Below are positions 266 through 24,582 of a stretch of DNA of 38,820 bases, piece by piece. Positions within the stretch are counted from its first letter, which is position 1, and the number at the start of each line of letters is the position of its first letter. The translations under genes and the position numbers were made by a program. Below the pieces are notes generated by a model. It was not told where the DNA came from. It saw nothing but the letters and a program-made list of their open reading frames with translations, and ran no database searches. This DNA comes from a virus (taxonomy: Duplodnaviria > Heunggongvirae > Uroviricota > Caudoviricetes). The stretch lies in IMG/VR virus record IMGVR_UViG_2908572912_000003. One strand, given 5' to 3'.

Positions 266-273
<8 letters not shown>

Positions 274-553
274 GCGTCCTGTCTCCCCGGTCTTTCTGCT
301 GGGCGAGAAAATCGCGGCACAGGCCTTTGGCTTTCAGCTCATTCAGCACAAAATCAATATCTTCATTCAGGTAGCTGAAAATATGCGGAATGTAGAGCTG
401 ATGCAGGCCGGAGAGTTCACGGTGAATCAAATCACCCCCAACAAACTGGGATACGGCGCTGGCGCGGTTGAGCTTATGGTAAGCCTCAATGCTGAGGTGT
501 TCACGGGCGTCATGACGCGCTGAGACGGTCTGAGGGGCTTTTTTATTACGCAC
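266..553 (-). CDS. Hypothetical small protein (95 aa) of the satellite leftward operon
   Basis: GTG start at 553-551 preceded by GGAGG at a 6-nt spacing; the start lies 5 nt upstream of the Icd-like stop, consistent with translational coupling; charged, protein-like composition. Confidence 0.45.
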
Positions 554-743
554 GGGACACCTCCACCACCGGCAGACGGGCAGCAAGGGAGAGCACATAG
601 TCACGGACAAGGGAACGGCGGGCACTGCGTTCATCACCGGCGACGGTGCGAAGCATGCAGATACGGGGATGACGGTCTGCGCGACGGACAGCCGCAAACA
701 CAAAGACAAATTCAGGGTGTGAGGGGGTAAGGGTTGTAGCCAT
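546..743 (-). CDS. icd: Host cell division inhibitor Icd-like protein (P1 Icd / P4 Kil-like)
   Basis: 65-aa [24 protein letters not shown]...; ATG at 743 preceded by AAGGAGG at an 8-nt spacing. The frame is open upstream to an ATG at 881 ([14 protein letters not shown]...), so a longer Ash-family product (546..881) is an alternative. Confidence 0.55.
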
Positions 744-1096
744 GATGGCAGCCTCCTTGAAGTAACAGTTACAGCTACCACTGGAGTTCCTACGCTCATG
801 GGTGGTAGCCCGGACGGGGGTAGGAATACCGGCCTTCAAGGAAACCGGCCAGCCCGAAGGCTGCCCCGCCCGGACCACCATTATCTGACAGAGGCTACGG
901 TTTAAAAAACACAGCCAGAAAAACAGGTGTGCCGAAGCAACGACGTAAAAAAAGACGCATGGCGCGTCATATGTCGCCTTGAAGTAACTCGGGTTCCTAC
1001 GCCCGGCTGCCGATTTTGCGGCAGCGGGAAAACTATATCCGCAAATGCCGGAAAAAGGCAAGCCAGAAAAAGGGACTTTTTGCAGGATGGGTATCA

Positions 1097-1363
1097 TCAC
1101 GCGTCGTACCCCCGTTTGCGTCCGGCAATGCGCCCGGCCATCCATGCGGTGACTTCAGAGTGCAGCCAGGCCACATTTTTACCGCCAAGACTCACCTGCG
1201 GCGGAAATTCCCCCTTACGGATGAGTTCATAGATGGTCGAGCGTGACAGGCCGCACAGGTGCATCACTTCCGGCAGACGTAAAAAACGCTCCTGCGTGAT
1301 GTCCGGCAGCGGCATCAGTGGCGTCACAGGGGCGGGAGACGGGGAAGAAAAAACAGCTTGCAT
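1097..1363 (-). CDS. alpA: AlpA-family phage transcriptional regulator (Vis/excisionase-like helix-turn-helix)
   Basis: 88-aa ORF containing ...[45 protein letters not shown]..., as recalled for AlpA/Vis-type regulators; ATG with GAGGT upstream. Confidence 0.8.
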
Positions 1364-1641
1364 CGGGCTACCTCGTTAATGTCCATACAGCACCGGATAA
1401 GTCCGTCCGGCTTCGGGTAGCGCTTTATTTTGTGAATATTTTCAGCAGACGCAACAGGGGGGATTTGTTCCGGCAGCCTTACAATGGCTGTGTGTTTTTT
1501 GCACATCAGCGCCAGATAGCTTTAAAACGCTCTGGAAGGAGCTGGAAAAAATTATAGTGAAATGCAAATTGTTTTTTCTTATTTATTTCAGTTAATTAAT
1601 AAAAATAAAAAGTAATAAACAGCACAAAAAGTCCATCCACG

Positions 1642-1746
1642 GGTGAACAGTGGTGAACAGACGGTGAACAGTCATTACTGCGATTGTTCACCCTTTAACT
1701 TACTGTATTACTTATCTTTTTTCTTAAGGTGAACAGAGGTGAACAG
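1642..1746. repeat. P4-type iteron cluster (ori/crr-like alpha-protein binding sites)
   Basis: Five direct copies of GGTGAACAG (1642-1671 and 1728-1746) plus one inverted copy (TGTTCACC at 1685-1692) in the AT-rich alpA-sid intergenic region; the core matches the recalled P4 type I iteron TGTTCACC. Confidence 0.6.
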
Positions 1747-1824
1747 TAAAATATAAAAAAACAAACAGTAAGCCGGTTTTTCCTGCGACCTTTTCCTGGC
1801 TTGCCGGTCTGAGGATGAGTCTCC

Positions 1825-4136: not shown

Positions 4137-6368
4137 TCATAAAAGTATTGGCCCTTTATTAAAATCATTGGTTTTGAAGTTTATTTCAAAGTGTTTGTAT
4201 ATTCGAGCCGGTTTTTCAGCAAAAAGTTCGTTTGCAGTTACGATGAATGCCGGGATATCCAGTTCTTTAGCATTAAGATACTCTATTGTTTTAATGATTC
4301 GCTCATCCTCCTTGCTGAGGAGACATGAAAACATAATAAAGTCACAATTCACCAGTGCGGCTATCTTGAGAAGTTCGTCGATTTGCTTGGTGCTGAATGT
4401 AGCATTAGACTTGCATTCGCATAGGCCCAATTTATGACCAATCTTCACAAAAACATCGATGTCAGATATTAGTTTTGTTTCTTTAAATACTTCATAGTTG
4501 GATTCATAACTAAAATGGTTATAGCCTTGTTTATTAATGTAATTTATTAATAATAAAGTGGCTAATTGACCTTGGTCTACCGCGCGGGCTACTAGTTGAT
4601 TTAACTTATAGTGGTCGTTTAGTACTTTCCCGTTATCGAATAAAGGTATGTTAATCACGTTCCCACATTCGACGCAGTGGTTTATCCGTTGTAAGGTTTC
4701 CAAGGGAAACCATAGCATTGCTGAACAATGCTCACATTGGAAATGCTTCCCTCTTAATAAAATGTTTGCATTATATAAGTTTTGCAACTTCCCTTGGTAG
4801 AGTGCGGGTGATGTGTTTTTGTCTTTTAATTTATTCTCTATGGTTTCCATAGGAATAATGGTGGATGATAACGATATGTCGCCTCGCTCTTTTAGAGTGC
4901 CAATGTGAGAAATTAAGTCATCGTGTGAAATATTATCTTCAAGATTAGGAAATGCCTTTTTAACAAGTCGTTCTGTCCTTGTATGCGGGGTCAGCGATAC
5001 CAATAAATCAAATATTTTTTTGTCGCTAATTAATTTAGCGTTATCAACTCCGCCGAGTAGTTGTATTAATTGCTCTAAAATAAACGTTTTTGCTGTTTGC
5101 TTTAATGTGAGACTATAATGGTGAAAATGTGAGTGTAGTAAATCAACAAATGAAGGTAGTTTGAATGTTTCAGTTATTCCTGATGTGCTGTAAGGAGAGA
5201 AATGTTTGAAGTACTTGGATAACCCCTTCTTGGATAAGCGTGTAAAGTGGTGCGAAAACATTGAGTTATCTACGAGGTTATCAGAAAAACAATGGCCTAA
5301 AAAATATTTTTTGGGATAGGATAGTTCTGCTGGCCCTCTAACTTCAAAAACAAATCCTCCTCCAAAACCTATATCAGCGAATGTCTTTTCATTAGGGTGA
5401 GTTAGGGTTTTGATGTCTGATGGGTCTGTGAGATATTGGTTATGTTCAAAATTGGTCCATCTTTCTTTATTACTTGGGAAGTAGTATTTGTCAGCAATAA
5501 TATATTCATTGCTTGAAAGGTTAGACGGTAATTTATTTATTTCGTTTTCATTGCTTACGACCAATATGGTTTCATTAGATATTATCTCTCCATATCTCTC
5601 AATTTCTTCAAGCGGCAACCAAGCTAATTTGGCATAGTTATAGCTGTTTCTGGTGTTCCAAAAGTAAAGAATGAAATTGAAGTCAGACGAGTGTGAGATA
5701 AACAGATAATCCTTGTCTTTATCTGCAAAAAAACCTTTATTATTATGGTTTTTGTCATAGATACTTGATGATGTATATGCAGAGCCTATAGCGTTGGTTA
5801 AATTGTGATATTTTGTTTTGTTTTCGAATATATTTGATTTTATTTTATTAGGGTCGGCGATGCATGAAATGGTTACATCTTGAAAAATTGATGGCATTCT
5901 CTTTAAGTGGACATAGTTTCTTTTATCTATTACACCAAAGTTTAAAGCGAGGAATAACGAGTTGGCAGTATATTCAATATTTGATGATGCATAAACTTTA
6001 CTAGGTATTAATGTTGGGTCTTTTGTGGCTAAATAAGGAGTGCTAGAGAACGTAAAAATTGGAGAGCAAAAGTTTAGTAAATTATAGTTAGTTGACTTGG
6101 AATTGTAAGTTATAGCATTAAAGAATTCTGAAATGGTTTCATCTTCAAGGTTTGAATAGTTGAGTACAACATCAGGATCATAGCTATCAACAAGTGTCTT
6201 GTTTATTTCTGAAAGCAATGAATTATCATTTTTTAAAATTAAATTTAGGATGCCATCAATATCTTGCATTAACGACATGAATATTGATAGGAATATTTCA
6301 TGATCATCTTCGATGATAAACAACTTTCGAATGGGACGGACTTTGGTTGTAACAAATGAATTATACAC
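4137..6368 (-). CDS. Large uncharacterised cargo protein (743 aa) with a C-terminal zinc ribbon and PD-(D/E)xK-like nuclease motifs; candidate anti-phage defence protein
   Basis: Uninterrupted 2.2-kb ORF, visibly AT-rich against GC-richer flanks; GTG start at 6368 with AAGGAA upstream, 25 bp downstream of the integrase stop; CEHC (4725-4736) and CVEC (4665-4676) cysteine pairs; DIDVFV followed by ECK (4410-4418). No Walker A motif seen. Confidence 0.75.
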   Translation of the reverse strand: MYNSFVTTKVRPIRKLFIIEDDHEIFLSIFMSLMQDIDGILNLILKNDNSLLSEINKTLVDSYDPDVVLNYSNLEDETISEFFNAITYNSKSTNYNLLNFCSPIFTFSSTPYLATKDPTLIPSKVYASSNIEYTANSLFLALNFGVIDKRNYVHLKRMPSIFQDVTISCIADPNKIKSNIFENKTKYHNLTNAIGSAYTSSSIYDKNHNNKGFFADKDKDYLFISHSSDFNFILYFWNTRNSYNYAKLAWLPLEEIERYGEIISNETILVVSNENEINKLPSNLSSNEYIIADKYYFPSNKERWTNFEHNQYLTDPSDIKTLTHPNEKTFADIGFGGGFVFEVRGPAELSYPKKYFLGHCFSDNLVDNSMFSHHFTRLSKKGLSKYFKHFSPYSTSGITETFKLPSFVDLLHSHFHHYSLTLKQTAKTFILEQLIQLLGGVDNAKLISDKKIFDLLVSLTPHTRTERLVKKAFPNLEDNISHDDLISHIGTLKERGDISLSSTIIPMETIENKLKDKNTSPALYQGKLQNLYNANILLRGKHFQCEHCSAMLWFPLETLQRINHCVECGNVINIPLFDNGKVLNDHYKLNQLVARAVDQGQLATLLLINYINKQGYNHFSYESNYEVFKETKLISDIDVFVKIGHKLGLCECKSNATFSTKQIDELLKIAALVNCDFIMFSCLLSKEDERIIKTIEYLNAKELDIPAFIVTANELFAEKPARIYKHFEINFKTNDFNKGPILL

Positions 6369-6393: not shown

Positions 6394-7596
6394 TTAATTA
6401 CTGGCTGATAGTGACTTAACGTAATTCCCCCACCAACTCATTAGCTCTATCCTTTGTTCTAAATAAATTGAACGATTATAAGCTCTACGTACTTCATTTT
6501 TATCTGTGTGCGCTAATGCTGACTCTATGACATCCGCATTCATCCCCGCTTCATTCATCGCTGTACTCGCAATAGACCTTAAACCATGAGCAACAAGCTT
6601 TCCACCATATCCAATTCTCTTCAGCGCAGCATTAGCCGTCTGGCTATTCATTGGTTGCTTTGGGTCATTCCTGCTCGGAAAAACGTGCTCTCGATTGGCA
6701 CTAATAGGTTTCATCACTTCGAGAATCTCTAATGCCTGAGTTGAGAGAGGAACTATGTGCTCACGTTTAGCCTTCATTCGTTCGGCCGGAATCGTCCATA
6801 GCTTTGTTTCGAGATCGATTTCAGCCCACCGAGCACCGGAGGCCTCAGAAGGGCGCACAAGGGTCAGGAGTTGCCATTCGATTAGACAGCGAGTCGGAAC
6901 AGACAGATTTGACATGACTAAAGAACGCATCAGCTTCGGCAATTCTTCTGGCCGCAACGTCGGCATGTTTTGCTTTTTGGGCTTCTCAAAGGCCATGCCA
7001 ACACCGGATGCTGGATTGGCATCAATCAGACCAGTGTTTACGGCATAAATCATGATTTCGTTAATACGCTGCACCAGTCGACGTACAGTCTCAAGCGCCC
7101 CACGTGCTTTTATTGGCTCAAGGGCTTCAACCAAAGTTCGGGCTTTGATTTGCTGAACGGGGATCTCACCGATGGCAGGGAATACATCTTTCTCCAGTGA
7201 ACGCCAAATGTCTTTTGCGTAATCAGGGGTAACGCTTTTGCTTTTGAGATGGAACCAGTTAGCGGCGACCGTTGAAAAAATACTGTCCAGAGCGATTTGC
7301 TGCTGTTCCTCTGCAACTTCGGCCTGAATTTGTGGGTCAATTCCGTTGGCTAACAAGGCAAGGTAATCCGCTCTTAACCCTCGGGCGTCAGCAAGTGAAA
7401 GGGCGGGGAAAGCACCTAGCCCCATCATTGTCCGCTGTTTTGTCGCCGGACGTTGATAACGGAAACGCCAGAGCTTTTTCCCGCTGGTTTTCACTATCAG
7501 GAAAAGGCCATCGCCATCATGCAGCGTTAGATCCTTCTCTAACGCTTTAGCGCGCAGAACTTCGGTGTTGGTCAGGGGGCGTGTTGTCCGTGCCAC
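6394..7596 (-). CDS. int: P4-type tyrosine integrase
   Basis: 400 aa; N-terminal arm-binding region (GLFLIVKTSGKKLWRFRYQ) and C-terminal catalytic region (HGLRSIAST...AHTD...RAYNR); GTG start with AAGGAG upstream; adjacent to the att core. Confidence 0.9.
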   Translation of the reverse strand: MARTTRPLTNTEVLRAKALEKDLTLHDGDGLFLIVKTSGKKLWRFRYQRPATKQRTMMGLGAFPALSLADARGLRADYLALLANGIDPQIQAEVAEEQQQIALDSIFSTVAANWFHLKSKSVTPDYAKDIWRSLEKDVFPAIGEIPVQQIKARTLVEALEPIKARGALETVRRLVQRINEIMIYAVNTGLIDANPASGVGMAFEKPKKQNMPTLRPEELPKLMRSLVMSNLSVPTRCLIEWQLLTLVRPSEASGARWAEIDLETKLWTIPAERMKAKREHIVPLSTQALEILEVMKPISANREHVFPSRNDPKQPMNSQTANAALKRIGYGGKLVAHGLRSIASTAMNEAGMNADVIESALAHTDKNEVRRAYNRSIYLEQRIELMSWWGNYVKSLSASN

Positions 7597-7937: not shown

Positions 7938-8561
7938 ATGACAATACAGGAAATAATTCAGCAACGTAATATTCGTAGCTTGTTTCATTTTACACATAGC
8001 GATAATCTAACTTCCATTTTAGATAATGGCCTTATGTCTCGTTCAGAACTTGATAATGAAAATAATGAATATAATTATAATGATGAAGAAAGGATTGATG
8101 GTCATCCAGATGCGATTTGTTTGTCCGTAAGTTACCCTAATGCAAAAATGTTTTATAAATATAGATGTTTAAAGCCTGGGGACTGGGTTATATTAGAAAT
8201 CAATCCATCTGTTCTTTGGGCTAAGGATTGCGCTTTTTATCCTACCAACGCAGCTTCGAATAACGTTCGTTTTATAAATCTTGATTTGATGAAAGGAGCT
8301 GAGGCATTTAGTGCTTTGTTTTCAGAGAATGTTTTTGGGATTCAGAGAGATGTAAACCTTCCAAGTGAGTATACGACGGATGTTCAAGCTGAAATACTGG
8401 TATTTGAAAAAATTCCTCCCTCATATATTATAAGCACTTTTCACCCTAACAAAGAATCTGCTGAACATTTCAAGAGATTATATCCACAGACAATACAGAG
8501 ATCTTATGATAATCTTAATGCTAGAACATTTTATTCTCAGAGGCATTATTATTTAGGATAA
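7938..8561 (+). CDS. DarT-like DNA ADP-ribosyltransferase toxin (DUF4433-like)
   Basis: 207 aa, AT-rich; N-terminal LFHFTHSDNLTSILDNGLMS resembles the recalled DarT NAD-binding motif; candidate catalytic Glu in AEILVFE near residue 150-155; a partner ORF follows 4 bp downstream. Confidence 0.5.
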   Translation: MTIQEIIQQRNIRSLFHFTHSDNLTSILDNGLMSRSELDNENNEYNYNDEERIDGHPDAICLSVSYPNAKMFYKYRCLKPGDWVILEINPSVLWAKDCAFYPTNAASNNVRFINLDLMKGAEAFSALFSENVFGIQRDVNLPSEYTTDVQAEILVFEKIPPSYIISTFHPNKESAEHFKRLYPQTIQRSYDNLNARTFYSQRHYYLG

Positions 8562-8564
8562 GTT

Positions 8565-9254
8565 ATGGCCGTTAGACCTGTTTTCGTCCCTACAAACGCA
8601 GGGAACTTACTATCGATCACGAAGGATGTGGATTTTCCTTGGGCTCCTGGTATGTCTAAAACGCAAAAGCAAAAATCGATCAGGGCGTTACATACAGCAG
8701 CGAATGAGCAGGGATTGAACTCTTTGTTGGAAATTTCTAGTAAATCCGAAGATGCGCTGGGGGTAGCACTTAGTGCATTTAATCTAAGAATAAAGACGAA
8801 AAGACTTGGGAAAGAGTTTACAGTTGAATCTGCATTTCAAGCAAGTAAAGTATTTGAAATGGGAGGACCATATGTCGATATCTTAGATAAAAGCTCGATA
8901 GAAGCAAAAAAAGATATGAGATTAAAGGAATCTGGGGGATTAGTTAACTTCAAATTTTATAATACAATATGGCCCATTGTCCCCAGGACTGCTTTTTATG
9001 ATTGGTTATATTTGAGTGCGCTCAATCAAAACAAAAATCTAGCACTCCATCTATTAAATTTTGATGGATTTACTGATATTGAATTTAATCCAGCGAAATC
9101 TATTAATTGCCAAGCCAGAGCAGCTGCACTTTTTGTCTCTTTAGTAAGACGAAATATGTTAGATGATGTTTTATCTTCAAAGGATGGTTTTTTATCAAAA
9201 TTAGCATCTCATTATGGTGTTGAAAATTATTCTATTCAACATACATTGATATGA
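8565..9254 (+). CDS. Partner of the DarT-like gene; possible NADAR (YbiA-like) domain antitoxin
   Basis: 229 aa with AGGA ribosome-binding site; LSAFNLRIKTKRLGKEFTVESAFQASKVF resembles the YbiA/NADAR segment FSNFAAWPIKVDGKTWPTSEHYFQAQKF; no macrodomain motifs (NAAN/GGGV) found. Confidence 0.4.
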   Translation: MAVRPVFVPTNAGNLLSITKDVDFPWAPGMSKTQKQKSIRALHTAANEQGLNSLLEISSKSEDALGVALSAFNLRIKTKRLGKEFTVESAFQASKVFEMGGPYVDILDKSSIEAKKDMRLKESGGLVNFKFYNTIWPIVPRTAFYDWLYLSALNQNKNLALHLLNFDGFTDIEFNPAKSINCQARAAALFVSLVRRNMLDDVLSSKDGFLSKLASHYGVENYSIQHTLI

Positions 9255-9286: not shown

Positions 9287-10456
9287 TTAATATCTATTTT
9301 TTCTATTTAAAGATGTATTTCCATCATATTCTTTGAGGTATGAGCCATAATGTCTAAATAACATCTCTGGTCCTTTATGACCCATTTGAACCGCAAGCCA
9401 AAACAGGTTTGCTCCCCGGCTGATATGGCTGGTGGCGAATGTATGTCTGGTTTGATATGGGTTTCTGTAACGAATACCTGCTTTCCGCAATGTTGGCACC
9501 CATGCTTTTTTTCTAATTGCATCAGCACTTGCCCAAGGCTTATTGGTCTTTGGATCTTCAAAGACTGTAGCATCCTTCATGAATGTAAATGGCTTCTGAT
9601 TTATCAGCGCCAACATTGCATCTTCTGTCAGTTCAACTTTACGAGTACCGGCTTTTGTCTTTGTTCCTTTGATAACACCGACAACACTTGCGCTCTGGAC
9701 ATGGGCAGTTTTTCCAACAAAGTCGATATCACGCCATCGAAGGGCACATAATTCAGAACTACGCAGGCCTGTATGTATAGCGAACCGGAACAGATTCTCC
9801 CATTGTTTGTTTCCGGCTGCTGCTAGTAATGCATCAACTTCTGCTGGTGATAGCGGATCAACCACGTAGCTGCTTTCTGCTTCTGACTTATCACTTTGGT
9901 AGCGCGAAGCAGTTACCAACGATACGGGGTTAATTTGAAGTACCCCATCGGTTACGGCTTCATCAAGTGCTGACCGCAGGAAAGATAACTGGTTGCGAAT
10001 TGTTTTTAAGGTCGTTTTCTGGCTTTGAATCCACGCTTTCAGGATTGCTGGTGTTAATTCACTTGCAGGGCAAATGTGGAGTGAGGCTAACGCACTACGG
10101 CATTTTTTATAACCACCAATCGTAGATGGTGAAAGTTTTCTCGTTTCGCAGATTTCAAGGTATTCGTCCAGGTACATTTTTACCGTTTTGCCTGCAGCAG
10201 CATTACCAAAAATTTTCAAACGAGCAGAACGGGGAAAATATTCCGCATAAATGAATGTTCCCCTTTCGATCTTATTATGAATTTCGCCGAGTGTGCGCTC
10301 GGCGTATTTAATGTTCTTTGGTGTTACTTCCAGATTGGAAAGAGGCTCACGACATCTAACTCCTTTGTAGGTGAAAGTTATATTGATCGTTTCGCCCTGG
10401 CGGTGTTTCCTGATTGTTACGCCGCGCGGTAGTTTGAGCAGTTTTGTCTGGCCCAT
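9287..10456 (-). CDS. int: Prophage tyrosine integrase
   Basis: 389 aa; catalytic region motifs (HTGLRSSELCALRW, HTFATSHI, GHKGPEMLFRHYGSY). Confidence 0.9.
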   Translation of the reverse strand: MGQTKLLKLPRGVTIRKHRQGETINITFTYKGVRCREPLSNLEVTPKNIKYAERTLGEIHNKIERGTFIYAEYFPRSARLKIFGNAAAGKTVKMYLDEYLEICETRKLSPSTIGGYKKCRSALASLHICPASELTPAILKAWIQSQKTTLKTIRNQLSFLRSALDEAVTDGVLQINPVSLVTASRYQSDKSEAESSYVVDPLSPAEVDALLAAAGNKQWENLFRFAIHTGLRSSELCALRWRDIDFVGKTAHVQSASVVGVIKGTKTKAGTRKVELTEDAMLALINQKPFTFMKDATVFEDPKTNKPWASADAIRKKAWVPTLRKAGIRYRNPYQTRHTFATSHISRGANLFWLAVQMGHKGPEMLFRHYGSYLKEYDGNTSLNRKNRY

Positions 10457-15022: not shown

Positions 15023-15205
15023 ATGATCATGCTGATTCTCGCGCCTCTGGTGGGCGTGCTGGGGGCGCTTTTGCTGGCGTATGGTGCCTGGCTGATTTAT
15101 CCCCCGGCGGGGTTTGTTGTTGCCGGGGCGTTGTGCCTGTTCTGGTCGTGGCTGGTGGCGCGATATCTCGACCGTACACAGTCGTCTGTCGGCGGAGGTA
15201 AATAG
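15023..15205 (+). CDS. Small hydrophobic (membrane) protein
   Basis: 60-aa ORF with GAGGT ribosome-binding site; predominantly hydrophobic; abuts the portal start. Confidence 0.4.
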
Positions 15206-16446
15206 TGTTCTTTTCGGGATTATTTCAACGAAAAAGTGACGCACCGGTGACCACGCCAGCAGAGCTGGCGGATGCTATCGGGTTGTCCTACGACACCTAT
15301 ACCGGAAAGCAGATCAGCAGCCAGCGGGCCATGCGACTGACGGCGGTTTTTTCCTGTGTCAGGGTGCTGGCAGAGTCGGTCGGGATGTTGCCCTGCAATC
15401 TGTATCACCTGAACGGCAACCTGAAACAGAGAGCCACCGGCGAACGTCTGCATAAGCTGATCTCCACGCATCCCAATGGCTATATGACGCCGCAGGAGTT
15501 CTGGGAGCTGGTGGTCACCTGTCTGTGCCTGCGGGGCAACTTTTACGCCTACAAAGTGAAAGCATTTGGCGAAGTGGCTGAACTGCTGCCCGTCGATCCC
15601 GGTTGTGTGGTACCGAAGCTTAACAGTCGCTGGGAGCCGGTCTATCAGGTCACATTCCCGGACGGCTCCACGGATGTACTGAGCCAGGAAGATATCTGGC
15701 ATGTGCGCACGCTGACGCTGGACGGTCTGGTGGGACTGAATCCCATCGCCTATGCCCGCGAGGCAATATCGCTGGCAGCTGCGACCGAAGAGCACGGGGC
15801 CAGACTGTTCAGCAATGGTGCGGTGACGTCCGGTGTGTTGCGTACAGAGCAGACGCTGTCGGATCAGGCTTATGAGCGCCTGAAGAAAGATTTTGAGGAG
15901 CGTCACACCGGGCTTGGCAATGCTCACCGCCCGATGATCCTTGAGATGGGGCTGGACTGGAAGTCGATGGCGCTGAACGCCGAGGACAGCCAGTTCCTGG
16001 AAACCCGCAAGTTTCAGCTTGAAGAAATCTGTCGTCTGTTCCGGGTGCCATTGCACATGGTGCAGAACACCGATCGCGCCACCTTCAACAATATCGAAGA
16101 GCTGGGGCTGGGATTTATCAACTATTCACTGGTGCCGTATCTGACCCGCATCGAACAGCGGATCAACACCGGACTGGTACGAAAAAGTAAGCAGGGCGTT
16201 TATTACGCCAAATTTAACGCCGGGGCGTTACTGCGCGGGGATATGAAGTCCCGTTTTGAAGCCTACGCCACCGGGATCAACTGGGGAATTTACTCTCCCA
16301 ATGACTGCCGCGATCTGGAAGATATGAATCCGCGTCCCGGTGGTGATGTCTATCTCACACCGATGAACATGACCACGAAACCCTCCGATGGCAGTAAAGC
16401 CGGTAAGCAGAAGGATAACGCCAATGCAGACGAAACAACGTCTTGA
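15205..16446 (+). CDS. Phage portal protein (HK97 family)
   Basis: 413 aa; GTG start with GGAGG upstream; position upstream of the protease and major capsid genes. Confidence 0.8.
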   Translation: MFFSGLFQRKSDAPVTTPAELADAIGLSYDTYTGKQISSQRAMRLTAVFSCVRVLAESVGMLPCNLYHLNGNLKQRATGERLHKLISTHPNGYMTPQEFWELVVTCLCLRGNFYAYKVKAFGEVAELLPVDPGCVVPKLNSRWEPVYQVTFPDGSTDVLSQEDIWHVRTLTLDGLVGLNPIAYAREAISLAAATEEHGARLFSNGAVTSGVLRTEQTLSDQAYERLKKDFEERHTGLGNAHRPMILEMGLDWKSMALNAEDSQFLETRKFQLEEICRLFRVPLHMVQNTDRATFNNIEELGLGFINYSLVPYLTRIEQRINTGLVRKSKQGVYYAKFNAGALLRGDMKSRFEAYATGINWGIYSPNDCRDLEDMNPRPGGDVYLTPMNMTTKPSDGSKAGKQKDNANADETTS

Positions 16447-17088: not shown

Positions 17089-18294
17089 ATGGCGGTAGAT
17101 ATTAAAGATGTCGAACAGGTCGCGCAGGAGCTGCAGCAGAAGTTTGACGACTTCAAAGCAAAGAACGACAAGCGCGTGGATGCGATTGAGCAGGAAAAAA
17201 GCAAGCTTGCCGGGCAGGTGGAAACCCTGAACGGAAAACTCAGCGAGCTGGAAAACCTCAAAAGCGATCTTGAAAAAGAGCTGCTTGAGCTGAAACGTCC
17301 GGCAGGTGGTGCGCAAAATAAACTGACCACCGAGCATAAAGAAGCGTTTGTGGGCTTCCTGCGTAAAGGCCGTGAAGATGGTCTGCGCGATCTGGAGCGC
17401 AAGGCATTACAGGTGGGCACCGATGAAGACGGCGGCTATGCCGTGCCGGAAGCGCTGGATCGCAACATTCTGACCTTGCTGAAAGATGAAGTGGTGATGC
17501 GTCAGGAAGCCACGGTGATCACCATTGGTGGTTCCGACTACAAAAAACTGGTGAATCTGGGCGGCACGGCTTCCGGATGGGTTGGCGAGACTGACGCGCG
17601 CTCCCAGACTGCCACCTCAAAACTGGGCCTGATTGAACCTTTCATGGGGGAAATCTACGGTAACCCGCAGGCCACCCAGAAAATGCTGGATGATGCCTTT
17701 TTCAACGTGGAAGCATGGATCAACAGCGAGCTGGCAACCGAATTTGCCGAACAGGAAGAAATTGCCTTTACCACCGGCGATGGTACCAAGAAGCCGAAAG
17801 GGTTCCTGGCGTATGAATCCACTGATGAAACCGATAAGGTCCGGGCGTTCGGCAAACTTCAGCATATTGTATCCGGCGAAGCGACGGCGGTGACCGCAGA
17901 CGCCATTATCAAACTGATTTACACGCTGCGTAAGGCACACCGCATCGGCGCGAAGTTCATGATGAACAACAACAGCCTGTTTGCCATCCGTCTGCTTAAA
18001 GACAGCGAGGGTAACTATCTGTGGCGTCCGGGGCTGGAACTGGGGCAGCCGTCCTCTCTGGCGGGTTACGGTATCGCTGAAAACGAACAGATGCCGGATA
18101 TCGCCGCTGATGCGAAAGCCATTGCATTTGGTAACTTCAAACGGGGTTACACCATCGTTGACCGTATCGGCACCCGCATTCTGCGTGACCCGTACACCAA
18201 TAAACCGTTTGTCGGTTTTTATACCACCAAGCGCACCGGCGGGATGCTGGTCGATTCGCAGGCCATCAAACTGCTGAAGATTGCAGCGGCGTAA
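17089..18294 (+). CDS. Major capsid protein (HK97 fold) with N-terminal coiled-coil delta domain
   Basis: 401 aa; coiled-coil N-terminus (ELQQKFDDFKAKNDKRVDAIEQEK...) followed by the capsid domain; AGGAG ribosome-binding site. Confidence 0.85.
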   Translation: MAVDIKDVEQVAQELQQKFDDFKAKNDKRVDAIEQEKSKLAGQVETLNGKLSELENLKSDLEKELLELKRPAGGAQNKLTTEHKEAFVGFLRKGREDGLRDLERKALQVGTDEDGGYAVPEALDRNILTLLKDEVVMRQEATVITIGGSDYKKLVNLGGTASGWVGETDARSQTATSKLGLIEPFMGEIYGNPQATQKMLDDAFFNVEAWINSELATEFAEQEEIAFTTGDGTKKPKGFLAYESTDETDKVRAFGKLQHIVSGEATAVTADAIIKLIYTLRKAHRIGAKFMMNNNSLFAIRLLKDSEGNYLWRPGLELGQPSSLAGYGIAENEQMPDIAADAKAIAFGNFKRGYTIVDRIGTRILRDPYTNKPFVGFYTTKRTGGMLVDSQAIKLLKIAAA

Positions 18295-20323: not shown

Positions 20324-20494
20324 ATGTTTGTTAAACCTGTTAAAGGGCGGTCAGTGCCTGACCCTGCCCGCGGCGACCTTTTGCCCGCCGAAGGGCGAAA
20401 TGTTGACGAGAACAACTACTGGCTGCGCCGTGAAGCAGCGGGTGATATCCGGCGCGTGAATAAAAAGGTGAATACCGATGACGATAAGCTTTAA
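20324..20494 (+). CDS. Small conserved phage protein (DUF2635-like), not in the supplied ORF track
   Basis: 56-codon ORF (MFVKPVKGRSVPDPARGDLLPAEGRNVDENNYW...) found by hand; its 3' end overlaps the sheath start. Confidence 0.35.
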   Translation: MFVKPVKGRSVPDPARGDLLPAEGRNVDENNYWLRREAAGDIRRVNKKVNTDDDKL

Positions 20495-21974
20495 CACCAT
20501 TCCGTCGAATACGCTGGTTCCGTTGTTTTATGCGGAAATGGATAACTCGGCGGCGAATACTGCACAGGACAGCGGAGCATCGCTGCTGATTGGTCATGCC
20601 AATAACGGTGCAGAGATTGTTGCCAACAGTCTGGTACTGATGCCGTCGGCAGACTATGCACGCCAGATTTGTGGTGCGGGAAGTCAGCTGGCGCGTATGG
20701 TCGAGGCTTATCGCCAGACTGACCCGTTTGGCGAGCTGTATGTGATTGCCGTTCCTGAATCCACCGGCGCGGCGGCAACGGTTACGCTGACGGTGACCGG
20801 GGCGGCAACCGAAACCGGCACGGTGAATGTGTATGTGGGACGTACCCGCGTGCAGGCACCGGTGACTAACGGCGATAACGTCACGATGATTGCCAGCAGT
20901 ATCCAGGATGCCATCAATGCCGTTCCGACCCTGCCGTTTACGGCTTCATCTTCGGCAGGCGTGGTCACACTGACCGCGCGTCATAAGGGGCTTTGCGGGA
21001 ATGAAATTCCTGTCAGCCTCAATTACTACGGCTTTGGTGGGGGCGAAGTGCTGCCAGCGGGCGTACAGATTGCCGTGGCGACGGGTACCGCCGGAACGGG
21101 TGCTCCGGTTCTCACCGGCGCGGTGGCTGCAATGGCGGATGAGCCGTTTGATTATATCGGCCTGCCGTTCAACGACACGGCCTCCGTTAACACGCTGGTG
21201 ACCGAGATGAACGATACCAGCGGTCGCTGGAGCTATGCGCGTCAGCTGTATGGTCATGTGTATACGGCAAAGATCGGCACGCTGTCAGAACTGGTGACCG
21301 CAGGTGACCAGTTTAACCAGCAGCACATTACCCTGGCGGGGTACGAAAAAGAGACCCAGACGCCTGCCGACGAGCTGGCGGCAAGCCGTACCGCCCGCGC
21401 GGCGGTGTTTATCCGCAACGATCCGGCACGTCCCACGCAGACCGGTGAGCTGGTGGGTATGCTGCCTGCGCCGAAGGGGAAACGGTTCACGATGACCGAA
21501 CAACAGACCCTGCTGTCTCATGGCGTGGCAACGGCGTATGTCGAAAGCGGGGTACTGCGCATTCAGCGTGATGTCACCACGTACAGGAAAAACGCTTACG
21601 GGGTTGCGGATAACAGCTACCTCGACAGCGAGACTCTGCATACCAGCGCGTATGTACTGCGCAAACTGAAATCCGTCATTACCAGTAAGTACGGGCGTCA
21701 CAAGCTTGCCAGTGACGGTACCCGCTTTGGGCCCGGTCAGGCGATTGTCACCCCGGCGATGATCAAAGGGGAACTGCTGGCAACCTACCGTCAGCTCGAG
21801 CGTGCGGGGATCGTGGAAAACTACGAACTGTTCAAGCAGTACCTGGTTGTGGAGCGTGATGCCAGCGATCCGAACCGCCTGAACACGCTGTTCCCGCCTG
21901 ACTATGTTAACCAGTTGCGTGTCTTTGCCGTGGTTAACCAGTTCCGTCTTCAGTATTCAGAGGAGTCTGCATAA
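20478..21974 (+). CDS. Contractile tail sheath protein (Mu gpL-like)
   Basis: 498 aa, Gly/Thr/Ala-rich; followed by tube, chaperone and tape measure genes in the Mu-like myovirus order. Confidence 0.8.
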   Translation: MTISFNTIPSNTLVPLFYAEMDNSAANTAQDSGASLLIGHANNGAEIVANSLVLMPSADYARQICGAGSQLARMVEAYRQTDPFGELYVIAVPESTGAAATVTLTVTGAATETGTVNVYVGRTRVQAPVTNGDNVTMIASSIQDAINAVPTLPFTASSSAGVVTLTARHKGLCGNEIPVSLNYYGFGGGEVLPAGVQIAVATGTAGTGAPVLTGAVAAMADEPFDYIGLPFNDTASVNTLVTEMNDTSGRWSYARQLYGHVYTAKIGTLSELVTAGDQFNQQHITLAGYEKETQTPADELAASRTARAAVFIRNDPARPTQTGELVGMLPAPKGKRFTMTEQQTLLSHGVATAYVESGVLRIQRDVTTYRKNAYGVADNSYLDSETLHTSAYVLRKLKSVITSKYGRHKLASDGTRFGPGQAIVTPAMIKGELLATYRQLERAGIVENYELFKQYLVVERDASDPNRLNTLFPPDYVNQLRVFAVVNQFRLQYSEESA

Positions 21975-22740: not shown

Positions 22741-24582
22741 ATGGCTGAATTTGAGCTTAAGGCGTTGATCACCGGTGTCGACAGGCTTTCTCCCGCGCTG
22801 TCGAAAATGCAAAAGAAAATCCGGGGATTTAAACGCCAGGCGGAAGAAGCGTCACAGGGTGGGCTGGCGCTTGGTGGCGGACTGGCAGCGGGTCTGACGC
22901 TTTCTCTGAAATCTTATGCCGATCAGGAAAACGCCGCCACCGGGCTGAAAGTCGCCATGATGGATGCGAACGGCGAGGTTGGAAAGAGCTTTCAGGACAT
23001 CAATAAACTGGCTATTGGCCTGGGTAACCAGCTACCCGGTACAACAGCTGATTTTCAGAACATGATGCAGATGCTGGTGCGTCAGGGGATCCCGGCAGAA
23101 AACATTCTTGGCGGTGTGGGTAAAGCGACAGCTTTTCTTGCGGTACAACTGAAAAAAACACCGGAAGCGGCTGCTGAGTTTGCCGCAAAGATGCAGGATG
23201 CTACCGGAACGGCGTCAGAAGACATGATGGGGCTGTTCGACACTATCCAGAAGGCGTTTTATCTGGGCGTTGACGATACCAACATGTTGTCCTTCTTCAC
23301 TAAAACCAGCTCTGTTCTGAAGATGGTGAACAAGGACGGTCTTCAGGCTGCACAGAGCCTTGCCCCCATCAGCGTCATGATGGATCAGATGGGGATGAAC
23401 GGGGAGTCGGCAGGTAATGCCCTGCGAAAAGTTATCCAGTCCGGATTAAGCGTTAAGAAAATCAGGGACGTCAATAAAGTTATGGCCCGTCAGAAACTCG
23501 GGGTACAGCTCGATTTTACTGACGGCAAAGGAAGTTTTGGCGGTCTTGATAACATGTTTAAGCAACTGGCAAAGCTGCGAAAACTTACCGACGTTAAGCG
23601 AACAGGTGTACTTAAGGCAATATTTGGTGATGATGCCGAAACCCTTCAGGTGGTCAATGCGCTGATCGATAAAGGAAAGGATGGTTACGATCAGATCCAG
23701 CAAAAGATGAATAAACAGGCCAGCCTGAATAAACGTGTTCAGGCACAGCTTGGTACGCTGTCCAACCTGTGGGAGGCAATGACGGGGACCGCAACTAACG
23801 GCCTTGCGGCTATTGGCGGCGCATTTTCTGGTGACGCCAAAAATATCACGCAATGGCTGGGGGAGTTGGGGGAAAAATTCACGAAGTTTGCGGATGAAAA
23901 TCCCCGGGTTATTCGCGGCGTCGTCGGGCTTGCTGCCGGTCTTGCGATTCTGAAACTGGGATTGATGGGCGTGGGCAGTGCCATCAGCATTGTCAGCAGG
24001 ATCATGTCGATGACGCCGATTGGCATGATTGCGACGGCGATAGCCCTGGCTGCGGGATTAATTATCACTAACTGGGATGTTGTCGGACCTTATTTCAAGA
24101 AGCTCTGGGAAACCATTGGTCCTTATTTTGAGGCTGGCTGGGAACTCCTTAAGAAAGTTTTTGCCTGGTCGCCGATGGGGATGGTGATCAATAACTGGGG
24201 GCCGGTTGTTAAGTGGTTTCAGGATATGTGGGACAAGCTGAAGCCAATTATTGAGTGGTTTACCGACAGTTCCGGTGACACGGTCGATGCCATTAACTCT
24301 GCGCAGTGGGGCGCGGGTGCTTATGATGCTTATGGGACGGGAATACCGGCACGGGGATACACTCCTTATCCGGCGGTGGATCCGGCTCAGGCAAACAACG
24401 CCTCCGATGCCACAGGCCCGAATCCCTTCATGATTAATAAAGCTTCTGCGCCAAAAGTTGATGGTGAGATCAAGGTATCTTTTGTGAATTCGCCTCCGGG
24501 TATGCGGGTTATGGAAACGCGATCCAGCGGTATCGACGTGAATCACGACGTTGGCTACACCCGATTTGGTATGGGGGGCTGA
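22741..24582 (+). CDS. Tail tape measure protein
   Basis: 613 aa; helical N-terminal part, hydrophobic Gly/Ala-rich central segment (GVVGLAAGLAILKLGLMGVGSAISIVS...). Confidence 0.85.
   Translation: MAEFELKALITGVDRLSPALSKMQKKIRGFKRQAEEASQGGLALGGGLAAGLTLSLKSYADQENAATGLKVAMMDANGEVGKSFQDINKLAIGLGNQLPGTTADFQNMMQMLVRQGIPAENILGGVGKATAFLAVQLKKTPEAAAEFAAKMQDATGTASEDMMGLFDTIQKAFYLGVDDTNMLSFFTKTSSVLKMVNKDGLQAAQSLAPISVMMDQMGMNGESAGNALRKVIQSGLSVKKIRDVNKVMARQKLGVQLDFTDGKGSFGGLDNMFKQLAKLRKLTDVKRTGVLKAIFGDDAETLQVVNALIDKGKDGYDQIQQKMNKQASLNKRVQAQLGTLSNLWEAMTGTATNGLAAIGGAFSGDAKNITQWLGELGEKFTKFADENPRVIRGVVGLAAGLAILKLGLMGVGSAISIVSRIMSMTPIGMIATAIALAAGLIITNWDVVGPYFKKLWETIGPYFEAGWELLKKVFAWSPMGMVINNWGPVVKWFQDMWDKLKPIIEWFTDSSGDTVDAINSAQWGAGAYDAYGTGIPARGYTPYPAVDPAQANNASDATGPNPFMINKASAPKVDGEIKVSFVNSPPGMRVMETRSSGIDVNHDVGYTRFGMGG

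Follow-up and report, generated by a model that had tools for sequence, protein, structure and literature searches.

A P4-type antisense-RNA immunity region whose recognition boxes differ from those of P4

The window, the whole 38.8 kb stretch of DNA that we analysed, carries on its minus strand all the immunity features described here (Table 1). Their gene order is that of P4: vis/orf88 (1363-1097), the reading frame that old records call "cI/ash", epsilon and orf151. Neighbouring frames overlap, the stop codon of vis with the start of eta and the GTG of epsilon with the kil stop; in the late (PLL) transcript vis comes first, and epsilon is the next gene in the controlled operon. The Icd-like frame that a first-pass annotation had recognised is real; it lies at 743-546 on the minus strand, and its 65-aa product scores 76.1 bits against NCBIfam phage_ICD_like (NF033153; cutoff 25); a Pfam search with Kil alone gave no match. 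By this score the kil product is a predicted member of the Icd-like cell division inhibitor family. The protein is identical to P4's, with one synonymous base difference in the gene. The same annotation had placed a ribosome-binding site at 743. A Shine-Dalgarno sequence AAGGAGG does exist, but it sits at 758-752, 8 nt before the ATG (743-741) of a gene whose stop is at 548-546; position 743 thus belongs to the start codon.

Table 1. Features of the immunity region and the adjoining genes, in window coordinates
Feature	Position	Strand	Evidence or detail
vis/alpA homologue (P4 orf88, 88 aa)	1097..1363	-	Pfam Phage_AlpA 74 bits; ~99% identical to P4 orf88
eta reading frame, 183-184 aa	546..1100	-	GTG 1100 or ATG 1097 to stop 546; frame conservation, Pfam Phage_ASH
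PLE-like constitutive promoter (putative), inside eta	1032..1061	-	TTGCCT, 18 nt, TATAGT
seqA, upstream target region (c4-a1b1)	986..1038	-	RF03163, box coordinates, covariation
Box b1 CUUCAAGG, upstream target of C4 loop	977..984	-	box complementarity, covariation
Intrinsic terminator, P4 t1 equivalent (predicted)	947..968	-	terminator scan; GACGC-GCCAU-GCGUC then U7
Variable spacer, t1 to RNA gene	886..946	-	alignment; divergent, in frame
C4/CI-type antisense immunity RNA gene (predicted)	798..885	-	RF01695, 86.1 bits, fold, stem covariation with P4
RNA box b' UCCUUGAAG	842-834	-	loop of hairpin 2
RNA box a' UUCCUAC	826-820	-	single-stranded bulge
seqC, downstream target	752..793	-	box complementarity; a2 GUAGGAA 793-787, b2 CUUCAAGGA 762-754
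kil (Icd-like, 65 aa), end part of eta	546..743	-	NCBIfam phage_ICD_like, near-identity to P4
epsilon (helper derepression protein, 95 aa)	266..553	-	ORF, P4 identity; GTG start
orf151 start, ~37 codons	163..273	-	P4 orf151, broken at ~163-165

The relation to P4 is close. Window positions 500-1500 align with the P4 records X51522, X02534 and NC_001609 at 94% nucleotide identity, the figure against X51522 over vis to epsilon is also 94%, and in pairwise alignment the flanking genes vis, kil and epsilon are ~99% identical to those of P4. In the phage collection that we searched, P4 records alone cover at least 80% of the query. The likeness to P4 (X51522) extends to the order of all elements, the promoter sequence, a t1-type terminator, the Kil protein and an eta frame that starts at the vis stop. 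The differences from P4 cluster in three short places and are coordinated among them. The element belongs to the P4 immunity system proper and does more than resemble it; the one feature in which it fails to agree is P4's own specificity. The window allele is common in sequenced E. coli: 122 complete E. coli genome records contain its 306-nt core with at least 99% identity, and a homologue of some kind is present in 1,712 of 5,426 genomes.

The first-pass annotation had also suggested that the GC-rich interval upstream of kil is a leader encoding an immunity RNA of the C4/CI kind, and had proposed an Infernal search with the C4 model and a comparison with the P4 cI region as checks. Both came out in its favour. 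The C4 antisense RNA family (RF01695) matches 885-798 over its full length (model 1-87) at 86.1 bits, with a gathering threshold of 45 and an E value of 9e-17, and two further families match the same strand above threshold: isrK (RF01394) at 1025-948, with 73.4 bits against 50, and the c4-a1b1 targets (RF03163) at 1038-986, with 51.3 bits against 46.7. The P4 cI region, which has been characterised experimentally, gives C4 and isrK matches at the aligned positions when it is scanned with Rfam. In the literature IsrK has been equated, as a structural homologue, with seqA, and C4 with the CI RNA (PMC4825925, PMC3632133). The RF01394 match is what the window has in common with IsrK of Salmonella Gifsy-1, which is defined as an Hfq-dependent small RNA that activates in trans; here, however, the element is the 5' target/attenuator of a P4 leader, and nothing points to the trans-activation of anrP known from Salmonella.

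The 88-nt RNA has a predicted folding energy of -53.3 kcal/mol (z = -5.0), none of 200 shuffled sequences folds equally well, and the minimum free energy (MFE) structure is the same as the centroid and agrees with the C4 model. A closing stem of 17 bp surrounds two inner hairpins and leaves exposed a loop, which holds box b', and a bulge, which holds box a'. The stable GGCAGCC hairpin that had been noticed in this interval is indeed present: as GGCAGCC-UUCG-GGCUGGCC at 865-847 it forms the first of the two inner hairpins in the C4 RNA. Compared with P4, one pair of the closing stem has changed on both sides (A-U to G-C, fully compensatory) and several others by wobble, and in an alignment of 49 distinct leaders from related loci the 17 stem pairs are 100% paired, with 2 compensatory and 6 one-sided pairs. 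Past the closing stem the 3' tail reads CCCAU in the window and CCAUC in P4, so that RNase P or 3' processing could differ. On the 5' side the spacer is divergent and 45 nt shorter than that of P4 but keeps the frame, the window type and P4 being separated by indel blocks of 6, 3 and 42 nt.

How does this RNA find its targets? Exact complements of its two boxes, 7, 8 and 9 nt long, lie at 1000-994 and 984-977 in the upstream target and at 793-787 and 762-754 in the downstream one. SeqA forms two hairpins, with box a1, GUAGGAA (1000-994), in the loop of the second. In seqC, box b2 overlaps the kil Shine-Dalgarno sequence and covers 5 of its 7 bases. This complementarity to an upstream target and to a target at the kil ribosome-binding site, together with the RF01695 match, bears out the proposal of a C4/CI immunity RNA leader. 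The composite pattern GTAGGAA-N(5-35)-CTTCAAGG occurs 3 times in the 38.8 kb, with 0.00 occurrences expected; the three sites are the two targets and, on the opposite strand, the RNA gene itself. The pattern search found no extra trans copies of the box pair in the window, for example in the neighbouring prophage.

These boxes differ from those of P4 at all three sites, which predicts a specificity other than that of P4. In the RNA, box a' is UUCUCAC in P4 and UUCCUAC here, and box b' is CCUGUGAA in P4 and (U)CCUUGAAG here; in both copies of the target, box a changes from GUGAGAA to GUAGGAA and box b from UUCACAGG to CUUCAAGG(A). Two positions thus differ in the a boxes and 4-5 in the b boxes. 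The predicted cognate duplexes have energies of about -20 kcal/mol with seqA and about -23 kcal/mol with seqC, as against -6 and -9 kcal/mol when the window RNA is placed on the seqA and seqC of P4. Since the boxes of the RNA and of both targets have changed together, we predict that the element is heteroimmune to P4 while being immune to itself and to others of its own type. Heteroimmunity through box changes is known in principle from P1 and P7, and it is known for P4 and phiR73 as well. Our literature searches on the immunity of phiR73/retronphage gave nothing relevant.

Related loci allow the pairing to be examined across the family. With Kil as the query, at least 5 loci were obtained from GTDB genomes (Kosakonia, Enterobacter, Phytobacter, Kluyvera, Mixta) and 80 from IMG/VR, which with GTDB makes 85. 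At least 14 combinations of b' and a' occur among these loci, and the targets are complementary to the RNA boxes in 98-100% of cases; the combination of the window is found again in 8 of the IMG/VR loci. For the covariation count we used the alignment of the 49 distinct leaders, with the pairings between sites entered as pseudoknots. There 99.7-99.9% of cells are paired, falling to 33-47% in a control in which the partners were slid by 1-3 columns, and changes on both sides are seen in 6 of the 7 a-pairs and, for the b-pairs, in 6 of 8 with seqA and 6 of 9 with seqC. We regard this as strong comparative evidence that the three sites recognise one another by base pairing. The exceptions are instructive: two loci (L063 and L077) combine a seqA of one type with an RNA and a seqC of another, and in two more (L022 and L067) the b boxes are degenerate.

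The RNA and its targets lie within a protein-coding frame. The kil frame had been described as open for a further 400 nt upstream, and it is: the mechanical open reading frame starts at ATG 1145 inside vis, extends 402 nt upstream of the kil ATG and encodes 199 aa. We rejected ATG 1145 as the start of eta: it is 48 nt into vis, and in P4 and 76 related loci the frame begins at the vis stop; the opening as far as ATG 1145 is probably irrelevant. At the vis stop the window has GTG(1100)-ATG(1097), where P4 has ATG-ATG-ATG (ATGATGATG). From there the frame encloses the promoter, seqA, t1, the C4 RNA gene, seqC and kil, and Eta has 183-184 aa in the window as against 197-199 in P4 because the window has 45 nt less between t1 and the RNA. 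We counted frames in the 79 loci in which both landmarks were located by a best-match, substitution-only search. In 76 of them the vis stop and the kil ATG are 402, 393, 390, 381 or 357 nt apart, all multiples of 3, and the kil frame is open throughout in 76 of the 79, whereas the other two frames are open in one and in none. Within this conserved frame, the N-terminal part of Eta is conserved at the protein level only where RNA elements lie and diverges in the spacer, a pattern that would fit a need for ribosomes to pass through rather than for a particular peptide.

The long upstream frame is no oddity, since it is P4's known dual-use eta gene. According to PMC10111431, which summarises Forti et al. 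1999, P4 kil is the terminal 65 codons of a longer gene, eta, whose start precedes the constitutive promoter and whose translation is coupled to that of the alpA/vis homologue. By this account P4 eta is translated from the late promoter only, its translation preventing termination.

Could the interval simply encode a protein? A functional Ash-Icd fusion of 183-199 aa, with the GC-rich hairpins incidental, would account for the conserved frame and for the presence in one ORF of a Phage_ASH match (PF10554; 115 bits, residues 37-146 of the 199-aa ORF) and an Icd-like domain; moreover, the PGAP annotation of other genomes treats the entire ORF as a protein. We consider this reading hardly credible. 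Three Rfam families match above threshold, and the boxes covary as base pairs among three sites, which coding for protein cannot explain; the confinement of N-terminal conservation to the RNA elements, with a diverging spacer, argues in the same direction. For P4 itself, cI has been demonstrated to be an RNA, as stated in those passages of PMC4825925, PMC3632133 and PMC3177188 that cite the work. The stretch matched by Phage_ASH, the family behind the label 'ash family protein', results from translating seqA, t1, the spacer, the C4 RNA and seqC; its counterpart in the P4 records is an old ORF labelled 'put. ash / cI gene product (aa 1-137)'. The "Ash-like" segment that had been read from an ATG (881-879) does exist as a 14-letter peptide, but it is a translation of the RNA gene: what looks Ash-like is the RNA gene and its targets read in the eta frame and no independent protein domain. 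The first-pass annotation had set an RNA leader against a full-length Ash-Icd protein. The covariance-model match speaks for the leader, but the choice was a false one, as the full frame is conserved too; RNA leader and full-length protein both hold and are not alternatives.

The remaining elements of the leader are a promoter and terminators. The PLE-like promoter is the sole sigma-70-like site found between 400 and 1900; its sequence is identical to that of P4, and the P4 record X02534 annotates a -10 at the equivalent place. The t1 equivalent is the 3' end of the isrK-like element (1025-948); a single loop base (C in P4, T here) separates it from the P4 terminator, and it has one compensatory pair in the leader alignment. 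The equivalent of timm, the Rho-dependent terminator fragment of P4 (X51522 8365-8209; PMC3177188), is the first 157 nt of kil, 743-587, and is one base off P4. In predicted folds of the leader the t1 hairpin forms in both the MFE and the centroid structure even without the antisense RNA, and a search for other leader structures that could account for CI-dependent termination at t1 found none. Since t1 forms without the antisense RNA, the sequence does not explain how pairing with seqA would enhance termination. In P4, the roles of t1, t4 and timm are reportedly those worked out by Briani et al. (1996/2000) and Sabbattini et al. (1995).

We propose that this interval serves a P4-type satellite prophage as its immunity region and very probably acts as such a region does in P4. 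The membership of the RNA families, the structure of the RNA, the complementarity and covariation of three sites, the conservation of the eta frame and the near-identity to P4 are all direct observations on which such a proposal can build. The constitutive promoter within the eta frame (1061-1032) would make a leader transcript, from which an RNA of ~88 nt of the C4/CI family (885-798) would be excised; in that family RNase P and PNPase process the leader to a stable small RNA, the agent of immunity. With b' in its hairpin loop and a' in its bulge, this RNA would pair with a1/b1 of seqA (1000-977) and also with a2/b2 of seqC (793-754), where it would cover the kil ribosome-binding site. Pairing with seqA would favour termination at t1 (968-947), so that the RNA would be autoregulated; pairing with seqC would block kil translation, and the untranslated transcript would then be terminated, including by Rho at timm within kil. 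Through seqC pairing and termination, kil, epsilon and the replication genes would be off in the lysogen. Once the late promoter upstream of vis is on, ribosomes coupled from vis would translate eta through the RNA gene and kil, and this translation would suppress termination, making the late transcript insensitive to immunity. In this model RNA processing, the termination steps and the phenotypes of kil and of immunity are presumed to be as in P4 and P1, and are carried over from work on those phages.

P1 also suggests another scheme. The immI regions of P1/P7 and D6 have an RF01695 RNA with a' and b' boxes, an isrK-like element upstream, and targets that lie upstream as well as at the ribosome-binding site of their Icd-like gene, and from C4 to the icd start they are ~70% identical to the window in nucleotide sequence. 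If the logic here were of the P1 type only, the C4 RNA would solely block translation of the icd-like gene, with Rho polarity acting on a downstream antirepressor, and the P4 terminators and the eta bypass would be idle. In favour of it, the P1-like phage D6 has a member of this Rfam family and an Icd-like gene as well, arranged as isrK-like, C4, icd, ant; b2 in the window does overlap the ribosome-binding site; and epsilon is an antirepressor, as is Ant. Kil, however, shares only 35% identity with D6 Icd over 40 residues, and what follows it is P4 epsilon and the truncated replication operon, with no Ant/KilA-type antirepressor, whereas the P1 type has ant translationally coupled downstream of icd and in D6 icd is followed by ant. 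In contrast to the immI regions, moreover, the RNA gene of the window lies inside a longer eta frame that is coupled to vis, present and conserved, and neither the t1 terminator nor the timm fragment differs in essence from P4's. A P1-type scheme on its own thus strikes us as improbable, and we retain the full P4 mechanism.

What state the element is in is a separate matter. Of the P4-type synteny, in which orf151 is followed by cnr and alpha, the window shows vis, eta/kil, epsilon and the start of orf151 on one strand and sid, delta, psu and a P4-type integrase on the other. Past psu there is an ORF of 743 aa with neither Pfam nor PADLOC matches, then the integrase, and beyond it a DarT/NADAR pair, a second integrase and a myovirus-type prophage. 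At its other end, in contrast to P4, the operon breaks off in orf151 at codon ~37. The junction is at ~163-165, and positions 1-165 of the window match an interior stretch of a transposase gene, IS5-like and of the ISKpn26 family, at 100% identity. None of the complete E. coli genomes searched spans this junction. The replication gene alpha is absent from the window, the operon being broken at the window edge, and the satellite may be defective or merely interrupted.

A relic is accordingly conceivable, in which the cassette is intact but the satellite remnant is defective, so that the cassette controls nothing of consequence or just excludes satellites of the same type. The disruption of orf151 at codon ~37 by the transposase fragment, the lack of alpha in the window and a junction shared by no complete E. 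coli genome would all suit such a state. Against it, the RNA elements, promoter, terminator, kil and epsilon are all intact and matched as well as in other loci, the side with sid, delta, psu and int is present, and the remainder of the element could lie past the window edge. We hold the relic to be a possible but rather unlikely state, and it concerns the biological condition of the element, not its mechanism, so that it is compatible with the P4-type explanation given above.

Thus the region is an instance of a well-studied antisense-RNA immunity system, in an allele whose recognition sequence is other than that of P4. In P4 and P1 the mechanism has been settled since the 1990s, and the Rfam models already detect the system; for the window, the chief value of the analysis is a correction of annotation, since behind the labels "Ash family protein" and "Icd-like protein" stands an RNA-based immunity switch. 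Mild novelty lies only in the combinatorial diversity of the two boxes across the family; our searches of the literature found no systematic catalogue of box combinations or immunity types of P4-type elements. We tentatively suggest that immunity in P4-type satellites could follow a two-box combinatorial code, in which at least 5 alleles of a and at least 7 of b reassort independently, giving the at least 14 combinations seen in 85 loci, with each change mirrored at three sites (seqA, RNA and seqC). The window is one uncharacterised combination, with GUAGGAA as a and CUUCAAGG as b. If such a code were true, the chimeric loci L063 and L077 would mark a recombination route to new types.

More generally, the differing boxes predict that the satellite of the window and P4 would not exclude each other, which bears on the question of which satellites are able to coexist or to superinfect in one strain. 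Moreover, the three-site covariation of this family provides a clean natural data set on the specificity of RNA-RNA recognition.

Near the left edge of the window the satellite, the P4-type prophage, is broken within orf151. Window 1-165 matches, at 100% identity, the interior of an IS5-like transposase gene (ISKpn26 family) and not an IS end, and P4 orf151 is joined to this segment at codon ~37 (junction ~163-165). The junction is absent from all 5,426 complete E. coli genomes compared, so it is either a private deletion or rearrangement or else an assembly artefact.

Farther into the satellite, the AT-rich stretch between vis and sid carries repeated GGTGAACAG motifs (window 1600-1760), whose counterpart in P4 is the set of ori type 1 repeats annotated in GenBank record X51522. 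The interval between psu and the P4-type integrase, which is the satellite 'defence hotspot' position, is occupied by a 743-aa ORF with no match in Pfam or PADLOC. Beyond the satellite integrase lies a DarT/NADAR pair, flanked on its other side by a second integrase. A second, myovirus-type prophage (window ~11000-38820), which also encodes a DUF2303 protein, directly adjoins the satellite.

Features of the satellite and of the adjoining prophage (window coordinates)
Feature	Position	Strand
743-aa ORF	4137-6368	minus
Satellite integrase	6394-7596	
DarT ssDNA ADP-ribosyltransferase (207 aa), then NADAR-DarT1 antitoxin (229 aa)	7938-9254	
Second integrase	9287-10456	
Portal, myovirus-type prophage	15205-16446	
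Major capsid, myovirus-type prophage	17089-18294	
Tail sheath, myovirus-type prophage	20478-21974	
Tape measure, myovirus-type prophage	22741-24582	

Among the related P4-like loci retrieved with Kil as query (L-numbers), five have decayed variants of the immunity region. L078 (IMGVR_UViG_2513237361_000014) is without the entire leader and RNA, and its kil ATG is replaced by CTG; the b boxes are degenerate in L022 and L067, and 1-nt frameshifts interrupt eta, the long frame ending in kil, in L067, L074 and L084. Two IMG genomes, 2529293142 (L032/L033) and 2531839450 (L011/L081), each hold a pair of P4-like elements; in one genome the pair shares an immunity type, in the other the two types differ.

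The immunity regions of two further loci (L063:1164-1512 and L077:1164-1512) are chimeric: the boxes of seqA, the upstream target, are of one type, and those of the RNA and of the downstream target, seqC, are of another. This arrangement suggests that a recombination event separated seqA from the RNA gene in these loci and that, with a mismatched seqA, self-recognition would be only partial.
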